From positions 1-20,376 of IMG/VR virus record IMGVR_UViG_2877973648_000005: a DNA stretch of 20,376 nt; one strand, 5' to 3'. This document shows positions 3,065-9,913 of this stretch, piece by piece. A model generated the notes under the pieces. The model was not told the DNA's origin. It saw only the letters and a program-made list of their open reading frames with translations, and ran no database searches. The number at the start of each line of letters is the position of its first letter. Position 1 is the first letter of the stretch. Made by a program: the position numbers and the translations under genes. The stretch comes from a virus. Lineage: Duplodnaviria; Heunggongvirae; Uroviricota; Caudoviricetes.

Positions 3065-3352
3065 ATGGCGCATCAGCTACTCATTGGTAAAGGAATGATC
3101 ACCTTGAATCTCAAACGGATTTTTCTCGCCCTCACCTTACTTCCCTTGTTTGCTGTTGCCGCTGATGATTGCGCACTCTCAGATCCGACGCTGACCGTAC
3201 AGGCGTATACCGTTAATCCTCAAACAGAGCGGGTGAAAATGTACTGGCAAAAAGCCAATGGCGAAGCGTGGGGAACGTTACATGCTCTGCTGGCGGATAT
3301 TAATAGTCAGGGTCAGGTGCAGATGGCGATGAACGGCGGCATCTATGATGAA
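3065..3352 (+). pseudogene. 5' fragment of a signal-peptide protein gene divergent from corA (possibly yigE), truncated by the IS1 junction
   Basis: ORF with a signal-peptide-like N-terminus (MITLNLKRIFLALTLLPLFAVAA) runs directly into the IS1 inverted repeat at 3353; its last 9 codons in the ORF track (GDAANLLI) are encoded by IS1. The yigE assignment is from remembered K-12 gene order only. Confidence 0.5.
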
Positions 3353-3407
3353 GGTGATGCTGCCAACTTACTGATTTAGTGTATGATGGTGTTTTTGAGG
3401 TGCTCCA

Positions 3408-3683
3408 GTGGCTTCTGTTTCTATCAGCTGTCCCTCCTGTTCAGCTACTGACGGGGTGGTGCGTAACGGCAAAAGCACCGCCGGACATCAGCGCTATCTC
3501 TGCTCTCACTGCCGTAAAACATGGCAACTGCAGTTCACTTACACCGCTTCTCAACCCGGTACGCACCAGAAAATCATTGATATGGCCATGAATGGCGTTG
3601 GATGCCGGGCAACAGCCCGCATTATGGGCGTTGGCCTCAACACGATTTTACGTCACTTAAAAAACTCAGGCCGCAGTCGGTAA
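3408..3683 (+). CDS. insA: IS1 InsA
   Basis: Identical 91-aa translation to the InsA at 1337-1612. Confidence 0.92.
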
Positions 3684-4105
3684 CCTCGCGCATACAGCCG
3701 GGCAGTGACGTCATCGTCTGCGCGGAAATGGACGAACAGTGGGGATACGTCGGGGCTAAATCGCGCCAGCGCTGGCTGTTTTACGCGTATGACAGTCTCC
3801 GGAAGACGGTTGTTGCGCACGTATTCGGTGAACGCACTATGGCGACGCTGGGGCGTCTTATGAGCCTGCTGTCACCCTTTGACGTGGTGATATGGATGAC
3901 GGATGGCTGGCCGCTGTATGAATCCCGCCTGAAGGGAAAGCTGCACGTAATCAGCAAGCGATATACGCAGCGAATTGAGCGGCATAACCTGAATCTGAGG
4001 CAGCACCTGGCACGGCTGGGACGGAAGTCGCTGTCGTTCTCAAAATCGGTGGAGCTGCATGACAAAGTCATCGGGCATTATCTGAACATAAAACACTATC
4101 AATAA
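3602..4105 (+). CDS. insB: IS1 InsB frame
   Basis: Identical 167-aa translation to the InsB at 915-1418. Confidence 0.88.
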
Positions 4106-4120
4106 GTTGGAGTCATTACC

Positions 4121-4480: not shown

Positions 4481-4873
4481 TTATTTCGAACAATCAGCAT
4501 CCATCTCCAATCGGAGAACCAACACCATCAGCATACCCTCCACTACGCCCTCAGCTTTCTGAAGCATCCTGCCAACCCAACAATCAGATCGCCCATGCTT
4601 ACGTGCAAGCGCCATAAAAGTCATGCCGCCGACATAATAGTCCACCAATAAATCATGCAAATCGCTGTTGTTCTTTTTCAGACGGGCCATGCACCCGCAA
4701 ATGATCATCGCGTCATCGTCACAACATTGTGGGCGAGATTTTACTTTTGAAGGAATTAATCCCTTAAAACCGGCGGCAATGGACGACCAGGTCACATCTT
4801 CATGATTATTAGCCGCCCACGCTCCCCAACGCTCAAGAACCATCTGAATATCACGCATCAACTTACTCCACAA
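4481..4873 (-). CDS. Late-gene antiterminator Q, short QuuD-like type
   Basis: Position (last gene of the nin region, upstream of a terminated short leader) and size/sequence resembling the DLP12 QuuD class of Q proteins; the native start may be the internal Met (MRDIQ...). Confidence 0.7.
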
Positions 4874-5730: not shown

Positions 5731-5893
5731 GATTCCTCCTTGCTGCCAGTCGCAACCATTTTTTATCAACCAGGCTAGCGGTATATCCGAGCAGTGTTGG
5801 TATTTCGGATGGCTTCAGCTCAGGCTTACGCTTACGACGATTTGATACTCTGTAGATGTGTCCGTTCATGACACGAATAAGCGGTGTAGCCAT
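5723..5893 (-). CDS. ninE: NinE-like protein (56 aa)
   Basis: Sub-threshold [50 protein letters not shown]...; its start overlaps the ybcN stop (TAATG) and its stop overlaps the ybcO start. Confidence 0.7.
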   Translation of the reverse strand: MATPLIRVMNGHIYRVSNRRKRKPELKPSEIPTLLGYTASLVDKKWLRLAARRNHG

Positions 5894-6348
5894 TACGCCT
5901 CCTGCTTGTCGCGGAGCAGCTGGAACTCGCAGCTCTGCGGAATAGTCAGGTGGCAGCCAATATTCATCGCCCAGGCTTCAACCTTACACAGGAAGACATA
6001 CATCTCTCCGGTATCAAGATTGGAGGTATGACGTAATGACTGAATGGTGGTGATTTCACCGGTTACGACATCAACCAGTTCTTTGGTTTCATAACCGAGA
6101 TAAGTGTGTTTGAGAGCATCTTTTACCCAAGCTGGAGTGGCGAACGTTTTACCCCTGCTGATGAGGTATTCACTGATTTCGCTGTACCACATGTGGCTGA
6201 GTGCATTCTGGGAAAGACTGCGTCTCTCGCGCCACGGTTTAAGCACCATGCGAAAGCATTTGCCGTCCTCCAGATAAGGCTGGATCTGCCGACCGATAGC
6301 GGTGAAGTTACCGCGATGCAATTTGATACCATCTTGTGGGAGGTTCAC
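5893..6348 (-). CDS. ybcN: NinB/Orf-family recombination protein (YbcN-like, 151 aa)
   Basis: [17 protein letters not shown] motif comparable to lambda NinB RSLDQNRKLW...; size and position match DLP12 ybcN. Confidence 0.78.
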
Positions 6349-6755: not shown

Positions 6756-7347
6756 GCTTCAGCCCTTCTTAGTAAATAGTGTGTAGGGCGACTGAAGGAC
6801 CGAGTTTATGCTTTTTCGCATTGCTTTCAGTTAGTAGACCGGTATAGCACCGGAAACAATCCTACGGCAAATTGGTTGTCTGACCTCTCGGTTTTTCGTG
6901 CATTAACCGATACCCACTACAGTCTCGGCGAAAGCTGCACACCCCCAAGGTGTACTGGTAGCACTCGGCACAGCCTAGCGCGCCACTTTCTTCTCACTAT
7001 CCAGTCTAATTTTATCCCCTAGTCAGACACTCAGATGTAGTGCTCAGCAGCGGCATGCGGGGGAATACAAAAACTCGGACAAAATTGGGCCCTCCTTTTT
7101 GAATCACTCGCGGGGATGTAGTTATTAATACATGGGAAAAGATCTGTTTTCAAATCCAACATTATATGGTTTCAATACCACGGGGTGGCTATGTGTTTCT
7201 CATTATTATTTACAATCTACTGTAATCGCTCCGAACGCAAATGCGTCAATACTCGAATCAACTGATCATCCTGCCACGACTGAAATCTCAAATAGGCCGT
7301 TTCTCAAGTAAGAGATTTTGAATGCATTATTGGCTACTGAAATAAAA

Positions 7348-7378
7348 AACCCAGCGCAAACTGGGTTCATATGAAATT
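7348..7378 (-). terminator. Rho-independent terminator after the secreted-protein gene
   Basis: CCCAG...CTGGG stem followed by TTTTTT on the minus strand, just downstream of the stop at 7385. Confidence 0.5.
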
Positions 7379-7384
7379 TTTTTG

Positions 7385-7879
7385 TCATTTCCAATTGCAA
7401 GACTGTGAAATTTTTTCCACAACCTTATCAATCTCAGACAAGTCAAACTCAACTACTTGCATAGTTGATCCATAAGGTTCAAACCCAAAAATAGCTTTTT
7501 TATGCTTAGCCAAGGTCTTTATAAATTGTATTGGTTGTGGAGCAAATGCAGAATCACCGCCTTCCCCACCTCCCCAAACACTCTTGACCGGCTTTCCGCC
7601 ATCTAACCGCACTGTAATTCTTGGGTTGTCCGAACCCATATAATCATTGAATGATAAATAGGCATCTGTTTTGTTATCACTACAACGCAACACCAGTGAA
7701 GTTGCACGATCAGTACCTGCTTTGTTATATGAATCTGGTGATAAATTAAGAGCCACAAAGTCAGTCTGGTCAGTCATTTTATTTATCTCAGACTTTGTTA
7801 TCCACGGCCCTAACTTCTCTACACCAGCATTTGCTGTAAACGAGGCACTTATAACAAAGGCTAAAATAAATTTTCTCAT
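7385..7879 (-). CDS. Hypothetical secreted protein (164 aa) with Sec signal peptide; moron in the ren/ninA position
   Basis: N-terminus MRKFILAFVISASFTANA is a signal peptide; strong RBS aaggaga; AT-rich codon usage distinct from flanking lambda genes; own terminator. Confidence 0.65.
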   Translation of the reverse strand: MRKFILAFVISASFTANAGVEKLGPWITKSEINKMTDQTDFVALNLSPDSYNKAGTDRATSLVLRCSDNKTDAYLSFNDYMGSDNPRITVRLDGGKPVKSVWGGGEGGDSAFAPQPIQFIKTLAKHKKAIFGFEPYGSTMQVVEFDLSEIDKVVEKISQSCNWK

Positions 7880-8025: not shown

Positions 8026-8199
8026 TTAAACAAACGTTCGCCAGACCTTACCATCAATGACCAGGATTCCTGCCCGCGTCATTTTTGCCGCAGCCTTATT
8101 TATGCTGGTTAATGTCACACCTGTTGTCGCAGCAACGTCCGGCGCACAGAAGCTCTTGTGCGTCTCCAGATAATGAATAATTGCCTCTTTGCCCGTCAT
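8026..8199 (-). pseudogene. ren: Truncated ren (57 codons; first ~55 residues Ren-like)
   Basis: MTGKEAIIHYLETHKSFCAPDVAATTGVTLTSINKAAAKMTRAGILVIDGKVWRT matches the lambda Ren N-terminus, then diverges to a stop; the ATG overlaps the P stop (ATGA) as in lambda. Confidence 0.65.
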
Positions 8200-8897
8200 A
8201 CAGTTGCTCCTTTCAGTCCGAACTTCGCTTTGATTTCTGCGATCTTCGCCAGAGCCTGAGCCCGGTTAAGTGGTCTACCGCCCATGACAGGAAGTTGTTT
8301 TACTGGTTCAGGTATAGCCTCACCACGGTTAATTCGTGCGGTCATACAGGACAGTTCATCGGCAGCCTTGCGCCGTAATTCCGCGTCAGTCAACGCATTG
8401 GCCCGCATGTTCTGATACAGGTTGGTAACCAGCCAGTAGTGCGCGTTTGATTTCCACGGATAAGACTCTGCATCCGGATACAGCCCGCGCTTCCGGCAAT
8501 ACTCGTAAACCATATCAACCAGCTCGCTGGCGTTTGGCAGCCCGGCGGTAACGGATGCTTCTTCCCGGCACCAGGCGACAAACTGCCCGGGTGATGGCAG
8601 GAATGGTCGATTCTGCCGACGGGCTACGCGCATTCCAGCGTTAACCTGTTCCATTGTGGTGATCCCGTTTTCCCGAAAAGCCAGCACCCACTGGCGGCGG
8701 ATTTCGTTCAGTTCATTCTGGTCACGGTTAGCCAGGCTCGCCGGGAAAGTTGCCAGTAACTGGCTGAACACACCGTTGATGATCTGCGCTACCTGCTGTA
8801 CCTGCGGCTTTTCGTCGTACTGTTCCGGCATGTTGTTGGCGATCCGACGCATCTGCTCACGGTCAAAGTTAACCATCTGTGCGGCGATGTTTTTCAT
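8196..8897 (-). CDS. P: Replication protein P (DnaB helicase loader)
   Basis: 233-aa translation nearly identical to lambda P (MKNIAAQMVNFDREQMRRIANNMPEQYDEKPQVQQ...). Confidence 0.95.
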   Translation of the reverse strand: MKNIAAQMVNFDREQMRRIANNMPEQYDEKPQVQQVAQIINGVFSQLLATFPASLANRDQNELNEIRRQWVLAFRENGITTMEQVNAGMRVARRQNRPFLPSPGQFVAWCREEASVTAGLPNASELVDMVYEYCRKRGLYPDAESYPWKSNAHYWLVTNLYQNMRANALTDAELRRKAADELSCMTARINRGEAIPEPVKQLPVMGGRPLNRAQALAKIAEIKAKFGLKGATV

Positions 8898-9913
8898 AAA
8901 TCCACCCCGTAAATCCAGTCAGTGTTTGTCAGGTCGAGTTTTGGTTTGCTGGCTATCATGCCTGCCTGTTGCTTGTTACGGTTGATTTCGAGTTGGGTCC
9001 ACTTGTCGCGGAGTTTGGCCGGACTTAGCACGTTACCGGACCAGAAGTTGTCCTGGCATGCCCAGCGGAAAAGCACGCACATGTCGCGGTGGTTACGTCC
9101 GTCACGTTCACGCATCAGGCGGATATCGTTAGCCCACCCTGCAAAATTCGGTTTTCTGGCTGATGGTGCGATGGTCTTCACCATGTCAAACATCCACTCT
9201 GCGGCGGTCAGGTCTTCTGCTGTCCCCCACTTGCTGCCGCTCTGAATTGCAGCATCTGGTTTCACCACAGGAAGATCGTTTTCTGGTTGGTCAGAGGATT
9301 CGCCAGAATTCTCGGACGAAAAAGGTTTTATATTGTCTTTTGTTAGTTTGTCTTTTGTGTTTACCTGATTCGGGTAAACGCCTTTACCTGATTTGGGTAA
9401 ACTTTTCTTACCTGATTCAGGTAAATTTACCTCTTTCAGGTAAACTTTATTTTTCTTACCTGATTCGGGTAATGTTGACCATTCACTGACCACATTATTA
9501 ATACCGATATTCCGCCCGCTCTGAATCAAAATCCCACGCTTTACCAGAACACTTTTTGCAGCAGAACACTTGTGCGGTAATATCCCGGTCAATCCGGACA
9601 GTTGCTCGTTGCTCACCCAATCCAGTTTTTTATTAAAGCCATATGTTTTGCGCATGACAGCCAGGAAGACCAGAAGCTGGTGCTGTGTTAATCCGGCCAG
9701 CATCACAGCTTCCAGCAACTCATTTGCAATGCGCGTATAACCATCATCGAGATCTGCCACGCGCGGCTCCTTTTGTGCCGCATCCGGCACTGGAAAATTG
9801 AATATCTCAGCAGTGTTTGCCATAATTCCTCCCGCAATGAGTGTGTTACGATTTGCACCTGAAAGTCGGTTCTGTTCCAGCAGACCGGCTTTCGCCATTT
9901 CTGAACCTGTCAT
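8894..9913 (-). CDS. O: Replication initiator O-like protein (iteron-binding), contains ori
   Basis: Located immediately upstream of and overlapping P; contains internal iteron array plus AT-rich tract, the lambda O/ori architecture. The N-terminal domain differs from lambda O. Confidence 0.85.
   Translation of the reverse strand: MTGSEMAKAGLLEQNRLSGANRNTLIAGGIMANTAEIFNFPVPDAAQKEPRVADLDDGYTRIANELLEAVMLAGLTQHQLLVFLAVMRKTYGFNKKLDWVSNEQLSGLTGILPHKCSAAKSVLVKRGILIQSGRNIGINNVVSEWSTLPESGKKNKVYLKEVNLPESGKKSLPKSGKGVYPNQVNTKDKLTKDNIKPFSSENSGESSDQPENDLPVVKPDAAIQSGSKWGTAEDLTAAEWMFDMVKTIAPSARKPNFAGWANDIRLMRERDGRNHRDMCVLFRWACQDNFWSGNVLSPAKLRDKWTQLEINRNKQQAGMIASKPKLDLTNTDWIYGVDL
9361..9474. repeat. Replication origin iterons: five ~19-bp direct repeats TTACCTGATTCGGGTAAAC, each an internal palindrome
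   Basis: Repeats at 9361-9379, 9384-9402, 9408-9426, 9427-9445 and 9456-9474 with 0-10 bp spacing, inside the O reading frame. Confidence 0.8.

Follow-up and report, generated by a model that had tools for sequence, protein, structure and literature searches.

What occupies positions 6756 to 7384 of the viral record IMGVR_UViG_2877973648_000005, where a closely packed early operon seems to carry no gene? The window analyzed here comprises nucleotides (nt) 1 to 20,376 of that record and is part of a lambda/DLP12-like prophage of Escherichia coli, with the rightward early operon on its minus strand. A reading made from the letters alone (below, the sequence-only reading) had described the stretch as free of open reading frames (ORFs) and suggested a structured non-coding RNA, a decayed gene, or a regulatory element such as a terminator or promoter. 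Our analysis revealed that the stretch is a recombination mosaic with a structured RNA gene as its core (window 7117-6786), and that each of these alternatives is true of a different sub-segment. The structured RNA holds for the core, which has a conserved fold and is very probably a bona fide RNA gene; the decayed gene holds for 7220-7303 only, where tblastn yields a match to a P22AR-type protein; and the regulatory element is borne out by a terminator at 7347-7368, while a putative promoter at 7124-7153 is recognized from conservation only.

Neither strand of 6756-7384 contains an ORF of 60 amino acids (aa) or more, in agreement with the sequence-only reading: the longest frames are of 59 aa (plus strand, 7132-7311), 48 aa (plus strand), and 44 and 43 aa (minus strand). 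The genes on both sides, all on the minus strand, are indeed closely packed, and the placement in the nin region was confirmed by the RefSeq annotation of an identical E. coli locus, which runs from O, P, ren (a pseudogene), and the TagO-like gene to ybcN and on to Q (Table 1). One correction is required, as the relevant (transcribed) strand is the minus strand of the window, i.e., the pR/nin direction.

The core RNA is known in 32 distinct variants, 78-100% identical and 330-332 nt long, from prophages and phages of four genera, Escherichia, Klebsiella, Enterobacter, and Obesumbacterium. BLAST searches found it in 181 of 5426 complete E. coli genomes (3%), under two different upstream genes, and in four isolate phages (Escherichia phages Turner and IdasGreatGrand, Klebsiella phages Kp4856-1 and Kp4862-1), whose copies are 78-80% identical, with the similarity limited to the core. 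Motif scans showed that about 66 IMG/VR contigs and 14 metagenome contigs carry the RNA, and copies in prophages of Enterobacter bugandensis and Obesumbacterium proteus were located by anchoring on a neighbor gene that encodes a 118-aa protein. Plasmids gave no match, and neither did 185,579 species-representative genomes in two independent motif scans (as a control, the gapped pattern recovers 63 viral loci); the RNA is therefore a rare element of accessory prophages. R1, a covariance model of the family, finds one copy in the window (388 bits) and none in lambda, phi80, an alternative locus bearing a HEPN-domain gene (see below), or the cas locus of E. coli K-12. The lowest R1 score (306 bits) belongs to a degenerating copy with several helix-breaking changes (locus L069, 4024-4355). 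In another locus (L045, 3066-3396) the 3' end of the RNA diverges after approximately nt 305, where foreign sequence is joined.

The consensus fold, obtained with RNAalifold, comprises 95 pairs in 18 helices with 7 branch points and is divided into two domains. Domain I (RNA nt 1-104, window 7117-7014) is a three-way junction, and domain II (nt 112-328, window 7006-6790) is multi-branched, with several hairpins and junctions and the closing helix GACUGG/UCAGUC. Pairs were counted on the 32 variants, with partners slid by 1-3 columns and 500 shuffles as controls. Paired cells amount to 97.1%, compared with 35-45% when the partners are slid; changes on both sides affect 18 pairs and 164 cells, compared with 1-6 pairs and 7-26 cells in the slid controls; and the observed covariation was reached by none of the 500 shuffles. 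Its strongest support comes from helices 8, 9, 11, 12, and 17; helix 11, for example, occurs as CCGAGAC/GGUAUCGG, CCUUUGAU/AUUGAAGG, CCGAUGUC/GACGUCGG, and CCGUAAC/GUUGCGG. In the Klebsiella lineage one peripheral hairpin is rebuilt in a different register, a change that is typical of structured RNAs. G-U pairs constitute 10.8% of the cells, and the same pairs on the opposite strand are only 86.6% paired; as the G-U pairs fit the minus strand only, this is the strand of the RNA.

Two long-range complementarities had been pointed out by the sequence-only reading. The first, GACCGAG (near 6800) with CTCGGT (near 6887), is helix 12 (RNA nt 226-231/314-319, window 6892-6887/6804-6799), which is kept through A-U, G-C, G-U, and C-G changes; a sarcin-ricin-like CGAGAGG hairpin was rejected in favor of this covariation-supported helix. 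The second, CCCCC (6944) with GGGGG (7058), is not part of the fold: the G-run belongs to a local hairpin (helix 10) and the C-run to helix 2, and the G-run near 7058 is not conserved (GGGGG, AGAGGG, or GGAUGGGG). A pseudoknot between GUCUGAC and GUCAGAC (nt 90-96 with 234-240), both strands of which are invariant, is possible in the model. Folding with comparative alignment, the check proposed by the sequence-only reading, thus yielded a conserved structure with compensatory changes for the core. The generic marks of a structured non-coding RNA gene found here are the conserved fold, the compensatory changes, the strand-specific G-U pairs, and the terminators described below, together with a putative promoter.

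Several considerations weigh against this interpretation. The family has little depth, with identities of at least 78% and an effective sequence number of 0.93, so the covariation rests on a limited number of events, and the structure was derived from the same sequences that were used to test it. Seven helices have no change on both sides, one of them being wholly invariant, and four more have just one such pair; as many helices are invariant, covariation neither supports nor refutes them. The single-sequence folding energy is unremarkable (z = -0.79), and a simple consensus promoter scan makes no call at 7153-7124. Furthermore, in the lineage of the window there is no terminator, and there the RNA could act as a 5' leader of the downstream ORF.

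Could the core instead encode a protein, or be what is left of a gene? Its variable columns show no three-base periodicity (56/49/49), and its indels are of 1 and 2 nt. There is no open frame on the sense strand of the core and no conserved frame. An antisense frame of 110 codons, present in some variants, was rejected as coding, since it has no start codon and is interrupted in other lineages; in the lineage of locus L028 it is a chimera of two frames. Comparison of the core with Pfam produced nothing significant (best E-value 0.086, below the family cut-off), and comparison with 5.8 billion proteins produced one match, a 61-aa singleton. The sequence-only reading had named a frameshifted remnant of nin genes lacking conserved structure as the outcome that would speak against its proposal; the core has neither a conserved frame nor protein homology, and protein homology within the segment occurs only at the separate fragment 7220-7303. 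Decay, or a functionless spacer, has on its side that a true gene remnant does lie at this fragment and that the adjoining 66-aa ORF is a deletion derivative; for the core, however, it is hardly credible given the fixed length, the identity of at least 78% over four genera, the compensatory changes, and the lack of a protein homolog and of a conserved frame.

A variant of the coding explanation is a dual-function RNA that also encodes a peptide of 12-19 aa, MSEFLYSPACRC..., starting at a UUG codon 8 nt past AAGGAGG. The Shine-Dalgarno sequence is strong and correctly spaced in most variants, and in most lineages the frame is open to a common UGA. However, in the sub-lineage to which the window belongs the frame is cut short by a stop at codon 13, the Shine-Dalgarno sequence is destroyed in L069, substitutions are mostly non-synonymous, and both the Shine-Dalgarno sequence and the start codon lie within helices 3-4. 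We regard this explanation as very unlikely, and the short ORF is probably not meaningful.

The RNA was not found in catalogs of known RNAs either. The Rfam check suggested by the sequence-only reading, made with the 4227 covariance models of Rfam 15 (including those of GOLLD, ROOL, C4, IsrK, DicF, riboswitches, ribozymes, RNase P, 6S, and tmRNA), gave no matches at the gathering score in the whole window; at E-values up to 10 there were three chance-level matches, all at the terminator region 7313-7426 and none in 6786-7117. ARAGORN identified no tRNA or tmRNA genes in the window, and full-text literature searches for nin-region non-coding RNAs, for structured prophage RNAs, and for the sequence itself retrieved no description. 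The RNA family is new in that it has no relatives in any catalog tested; the novelty concerns the family, not the mechanism. It resembles GOLLD and ROOL (PMC12286853) in being large, multi-branched, highly conserved, often phage- or prophage-borne, and without a linked protein gene, but it matches neither Rfam model, is about half their size, and occurs in lambdoid phages of Enterobacterales with a very narrow phylogenetic spread.

The boundaries of the RNA become apparent when lineages are compared. The similar region starts with the -35/-10-like boxes and extends to ...CAGUCGCC, the 3' end of the RNA. The boxes, a TTG-type -35 and a (TG)T-A/T-rich -10, lie at an unchanging distance from the first conserved base in every lineage, amid surroundings that diverge, and the RNA would start at A7117. 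Upstream genes differ by lineage (VasI-like, P22AR-type of several lengths, DUF550-like, and others), and downstream genes belong to at least six unrelated families, including the 118-aa family, a 183-aa, a 191-aa membrane, a 177-aa, and a 95-aa protein, and DUF1367. The RNA module moves between nin regions independently of its neighbors. PADLOC gave no match for the neighbor genes, and Pfam none apart from VasI and DUF1367. A linked protein partner was considered and rejected, because the neighbors vary between lineages.

The sole recurrent neighbor is the 118-aa protein, a generic four-helix bundle that is truncated in the window. Its AlphaFold model has four helices with a mean predicted local distance difference test (pLDDT) score of 80, and a PDB fold search with this model found no match at E-values up to 0.001. 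Among 47 IMG/VR loci of its gene, 45 are on contigs that carry the RNA, one more was confirmed by the covariance model, and the last is cut at the contig end; the same arrangement of RNA and 118-aa gene was found again in Enterobacter and Obesumbacterium. The RNA is intact where this gene is truncated, i.e., in the window and 55 near-identical genomes. A 51%-identical homolog of the gene stands next to an integrase in locus L146, with no RNA there.

In most non-E. coli lineages an intrinsic terminator follows approximately 5-10 nt past the RNA. The arms and loops of these terminators differ and are internally compensated (CCGCC-N4-GGCGG variants, GCCACC/GGUGG), and one of them was called by a terminator scan. 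Lineages with the 118-aa gene have no terminator, and the ATG of the gene lies 30-33 nt past the RNA. This also applies to the window, where the scan found no terminator-like site between 6786 and 6555; the RNA would therefore be co-transcribed with the next ORF in this lineage. That ORF, of 66 aa, matches residues 1-67 of the 118-aa protein at 84% identity in tblastn, with the final 17 residues out of frame at 6589-6539.

The main rival explanation is a cis-regulatory leader, suggested by two features: the terminator with a gene directly behind it and, in three lineages, the constant association with the 118-aa ORF. Promoter, folded RNA, and terminator would then form an attenuator- or riboswitch-like cassette controlling either read-through into the next moron and the nin and Q genes, or translation of the 118-aa ORF. 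The terminator comes directly after the RNA in most lineages, with the next gene 15-50 nt on and no room for a promoter of its own; in three RNA lineages the 118-aa gene is always 30-33 nt on, without a terminator; and the 3' tail of the RNA, GCC(C), can pair with a Shine-Dalgarno-like GGC/GGGC as read from the sequence. However, the downstream genes are of at least six unrelated families and not the related genes seen in riboswitch regulons, the RNA stays intact beside a truncated 118-aa gene and also when a strong terminator sets it apart, the 51%-identical homolog of that gene exists without the RNA, and no conserved alternative (antiterminator) pairing was found. A leader function is thus unlikely.

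The remainder of the ORF-free stretch consists of parts of different origin (Table 1). The hairpin at 7368-7347, GC-rich and followed by a U-tract, has the features of an intrinsic, tR2-like terminator and accounts for just 22 bp of the segment. Window 7227-7390 is common to E. coli loci that have the TagO-like gene but no RNA, and the terminator is part of this upstream module, not of the RNA. The gene fragment after it is 64% identical to residues 80-107 of an intact 107-aa protein of locus L003 (E-value 8e-9, tblastn); it is what remains of a gene for a P22AR C-terminal domain (antirepressor-like) that was severed at a mosaic junction. An intact P22AR-type gene occupies the same place in 125 E. 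coli genomes. Upstream of the putative promoter, a second conserved block, CCATAT(A)ATGTTG(G/T)AT, lies within 7154-7216 of the minus strand; it is common to E. coli and several environmental lineages, has a perfect TATAAT in E. coli, and could be an alternative promoter, an UP element, or an operator.

Table 1. Features of the ORF-free stretch and its neighborhood, listed in the direction of transcription (window positions).
Feature	Position	Strand	Description
cro		minus	
cII-like gene		minus	
O	8894-9913	minus	
P	8196-8897	minus	
ren pseudogene		minus	
VasI/TagO-like gene	7385-7879	minus	
Intrinsic terminator	7368-7347	minus	9-pair stem GAACCCAGTTTGCGCTGGGTTT, then TTTATTT; directly after the VasI/TagO-like gene
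P22AR-type gene remnant	7303-7220	minus	Final 28 codons (tblastn)
Putative sigma-70-type promoter	7153-7124	minus	-35 TTGAAA (7153-7148), 17-18 nt spacer, extended -10 TGTATTAAT (7132-7124)
Structured non-coding RNA, 332 nt	7117-6786	minus	AUCCCCGCGAG ... CAGUCGCCC
Type I-E repeat-like part of the RNA	7011-7116	minus	Helices 1 and 2 of domain I
Short ORF inside the RNA	7080-7025 (RNA nt 38-93)	minus	Starts at UUG; encodes 12 aa in the window and 19 aa in most other lineages
Spacer, 30 nt	6785-6756	minus	Shine-Dalgarno-like AAGAAGGG
66-aa ORF	6755-6555	minus	Internally deleted copy of the 118-aa all-helical protein, phrog_12412 (PHROG match)
ybcN/NinB-like gene	5893-6348	minus	
ninE		minus	
DUF1364		minus	
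rusA		minus	
ylcG		minus	
Q	4481-4873	minus	

The same slot was found with other contents in E. coli fS149a (NZ_CM176575.1; locus L096, 1398-2194), where the flanks are again P, ren, and the TagO-like gene on one side and ybcN on the other, and the insert is a HEPN-domain gene with a small hypothetical gene, possibly a toxin-antitoxin or defense pair. The presence of this cassette between the same flanks indicates that the slot is an exchangeable moron slot. In L096 an unannotated gap of 464 bp lies upstream of the HEPN-domain gene.

Elsewhere in the window, two IS1 copies (900-1671 and 3349-4120) in inverted orientation enclose a gene for a CorA-like Mg2+ transporter (1745-2710); their 772-nt arms are 100% complementary and their transposase ORFs lie at 915-1418 and 3602-4105. 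From the sequence this arrangement, which lies just downstream of the antiterminator gene Q, looks like a composite transposon.

What might such an RNA do? Prophages are known to encode small RNAs (sRNAs) and anti-sRNAs, and one possibility is a base-pairing regulator or sponge, whose invariant strand AUUUUGUCCGAGUUUUUGUAUUCCCCCGCAUGCC or other conserved unpaired parts would anneal to RNAs of the host or of phages. The 3' strand of helices 2-4 is invariant while its 5' partner varies, suggesting a constraint beyond pairing, and the terminator hairpin and U-tail that close the RNA in most lineages are like those of Hfq-type sRNAs. On the other hand, base-pairing sRNAs are much smaller and far less elaborate in their folds, and complementarity of the RNA to other parts of the 20-kb window does not go beyond chance (four 11-mers vs. 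3.0 expected, no 12-mers); this explanation seems quite unlikely. The prophage sRNAs DicF, IpeX, IsrK, StxS, and AgvB/AsxR are likewise non-coding and expressed from lambdoid prophages, some of them in or near the nin/Q region and some with their own promoter and terminator. They are, however, simple RNAs of approximately 50-170 nt that act by short base pairing, whereas the RNA described here has 332 nt and 18 helices and gave no Rfam match to them.

Other RNA elements of the pR operon, namely the boxA/boxB of nut, the put sites of HK022, and the terminators tR2-tR4, also invite comparison, the more so as the locus contains a boxB-like hairpin and the genuine terminator 7368-7347. The nut and put elements are 15-70 nt long, are located just downstream of pL/pR, and act on the transcribing polymerase; in contrast, the RNA is far larger, most likely has its own promoter, usually has its own terminator, and has no boxA by the hairpin. 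The hairpin in question, AUGC-GAAAAA-GCAU (window 6808-6821, RNA nt 297-310), is unchanged in most variants, and its loop, GAAAA(A), is like that of lambda boxB. The boxA in the phage's own nutR region is CGCTCTTTAAC.

Domain I bears some likeness to a repeat of the type I-E CRISPR system. Here nt 2-9, UCCCCGCG, are paired with CGC (nt 59-61) and with GGGG (nt 99-102), the latter followed by AUAAA in the window and by AU(A/G)(A/G)A across variants, and helices 1 and 2 are contiguous on the 5' strand. Together, these parts (UCCCCGCG, CGC, and GGGGAU(A/G)(A/G)A at nt 99-107) would recreate the 6-bp CCCCGC/GCGGGG stem of GAGUUCCCCGCGCCAGCGGGGAUAAACCG and its G↓AU cleavage-site flank, GAGUUCCCCGCGCCAGCGGGGAUAAACCG being the enterobacterial I-E repeat reported from E. 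coli, Salmonella, Klebsiella, and Cronobacter; the K-12 repeat was verified as GAGTTCCCCGCGCCAGCGGGGATAAACCG. The contiguity of the two helices favors coaxial stacking, which would yield the repeat stem together with its flank. The repeat-like nucleotides are nearly invariant in the 32 variants (three rare variants have one changed position each), and the pattern TCCCCGCG-N-GGGGATAAA occurs once in the window vs. 0.00 expected in shuffles. One lineage has AUGAACCA, which keeps handle positions -7, -5, -3, and -2, those read specifically by Cascade (PMC4288178).

Solitary-repeat RNAs of phages, each with a promoter and a terminator of its own, are known to inhibit I-E, I-F, I-C, and V-A systems (PMC10651486). 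The RNA could similarly be an anti-CRISPR-like decoy, with domain I mimicking the I-E repeat hairpin and binding, or perhaps being cut by, Cas6e (CasE), so as to titrate this protein or seed aberrant Cascade and thereby protect the prophage or an incoming phage. In an extended version, a multi-domain decoy, domain I would capture Cas6e/Cascade via its three-way junction, and domain II would serve a second activity or target. Both versions are rather unlikely. The likeness was noticed post hoc in a stem that is GC-rich and palindromic; the match to the K-12 repeat is confined to two separate blocks, of 8 nt and 9 nt, and there is no contiguous near-full-length repeat; handle positions 6-8 vary between lineages; and approximately 230 further conserved nucleotides, two thirds of the RNA, are not explained by repeat mimicry. 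The branch in the 3' strand of the repeat-like stem may hinder Cas6e, and the I-E system of E. coli is largely silenced by H-NS. Pfam and PADLOC scans, run with no dedicated Acr library, revealed no acr or aca genes nearby. Compared with the 14-kb cas-CRISPR locus of K-12, the RNA has no stretch of 11 nt or more that is identical or complementary, and hence it is not a Cracr-type guide.

Comparison with Racr (PMC10651486) and Cracr (bioRxiv 10.1101/2024.10.29.618823) leads to a similar picture. All are small transcription units of phages or prophages with a terminator and their own promoter (putative here), and part of the RNA described here may resemble the repeat hairpin and cleavage-site flank of the host type I-E system, with a branch in the 3' strand. 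The RNA differs in that the likeness is split over a three-way junction instead of forming a contiguous near-full-length repeat, in its length of 332 nt with approximately 230 nt more of conserved structure, and in having neither a pseudo-spacer match to the cas locus nor acr/aca neighbors. A second repeat-like unit, as in the Cracr layout, was not found, and four searched strings of the element are absent from the SRU tables of the solitary-repeat paper, which contain contiguous full-length repeats only. Candidate distant relatives sought with TCCCCGCG..CCCGC..GGGGATRRA had to be rejected: ten extra viral loci were obtained, none related, nine of them being chance matches in high-GC contigs. 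The tenth (L092, approximately 3115-3252 of IMGVR_UViG_3300049165_000088), on an unrelated high-GC viral contig, is a short array whose repeats are degenerate and I-E-like (CCCCGC...GCGGGGAUG); a terminator comes after it, and it may be a mini-array of the Racr/Cracr type.

Taken as a whole, the stretch is likely to be explained as a mosaic with an autonomous structured RNA gene, most plausibly trans-acting, in a moron slot. The gene sits between the replication genes and ninB of a lambdoid prophage. Its transcription would begin at A7117, from a sigma-70 promoter of its own, and would in most lineages end at the intrinsic terminator a few nucleotides past the conserved 3' end; in the lineage of the window it would run on into the small ORF. 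By analogy with other morons flanked by promoters and terminators, the RNA may be expressed from the prophage in lysogens. As a stable RNA it may then bind a protein of the host or of a competitor, serving as scaffold or decoy when phage and host, or two phages, are in conflict; this protein-binding mode of trans action is a tentative suggestion, plausible though somewhat short of probable. Action in trans on a partner encoded by the host or a competitor is favored by the differing neighbors and the lack of a linked partner protein. The size, fixed length, multi-junction fold, and long invariant segments of the RNA liken it to RNAs that work through tertiary structure, such as scaffolds, decoys, and ribozymes, and not to seed-pairing sRNAs.

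New classes of large structured RNAs are rare, and the finding of one in the intensively annotated genomes of E. coli and Klebsiella shows that there are entire RNA genes in the moron slots of phages that RefSeq, PGAP, and Rfam continue to overlook. The function of the RNA lends itself directly to testing, as the RNA is small and modular and occurs in culturable phages as well as in 3% of complete E. coli genomes. If its CRISPR-repeat likeness is functional, RNA anti-CRISPRs would be extended to a structural-mimic form and to the enterobacterial I-E system, and a repeat mimic built on a three-way junction would be an architecture invisible to sequence-based searches for solitary repeats. If it is not, the RNA would be an ornate orphan, for which the HEPN-domain cassette held elsewhere by the same slot points to a role in phage-host conflict.

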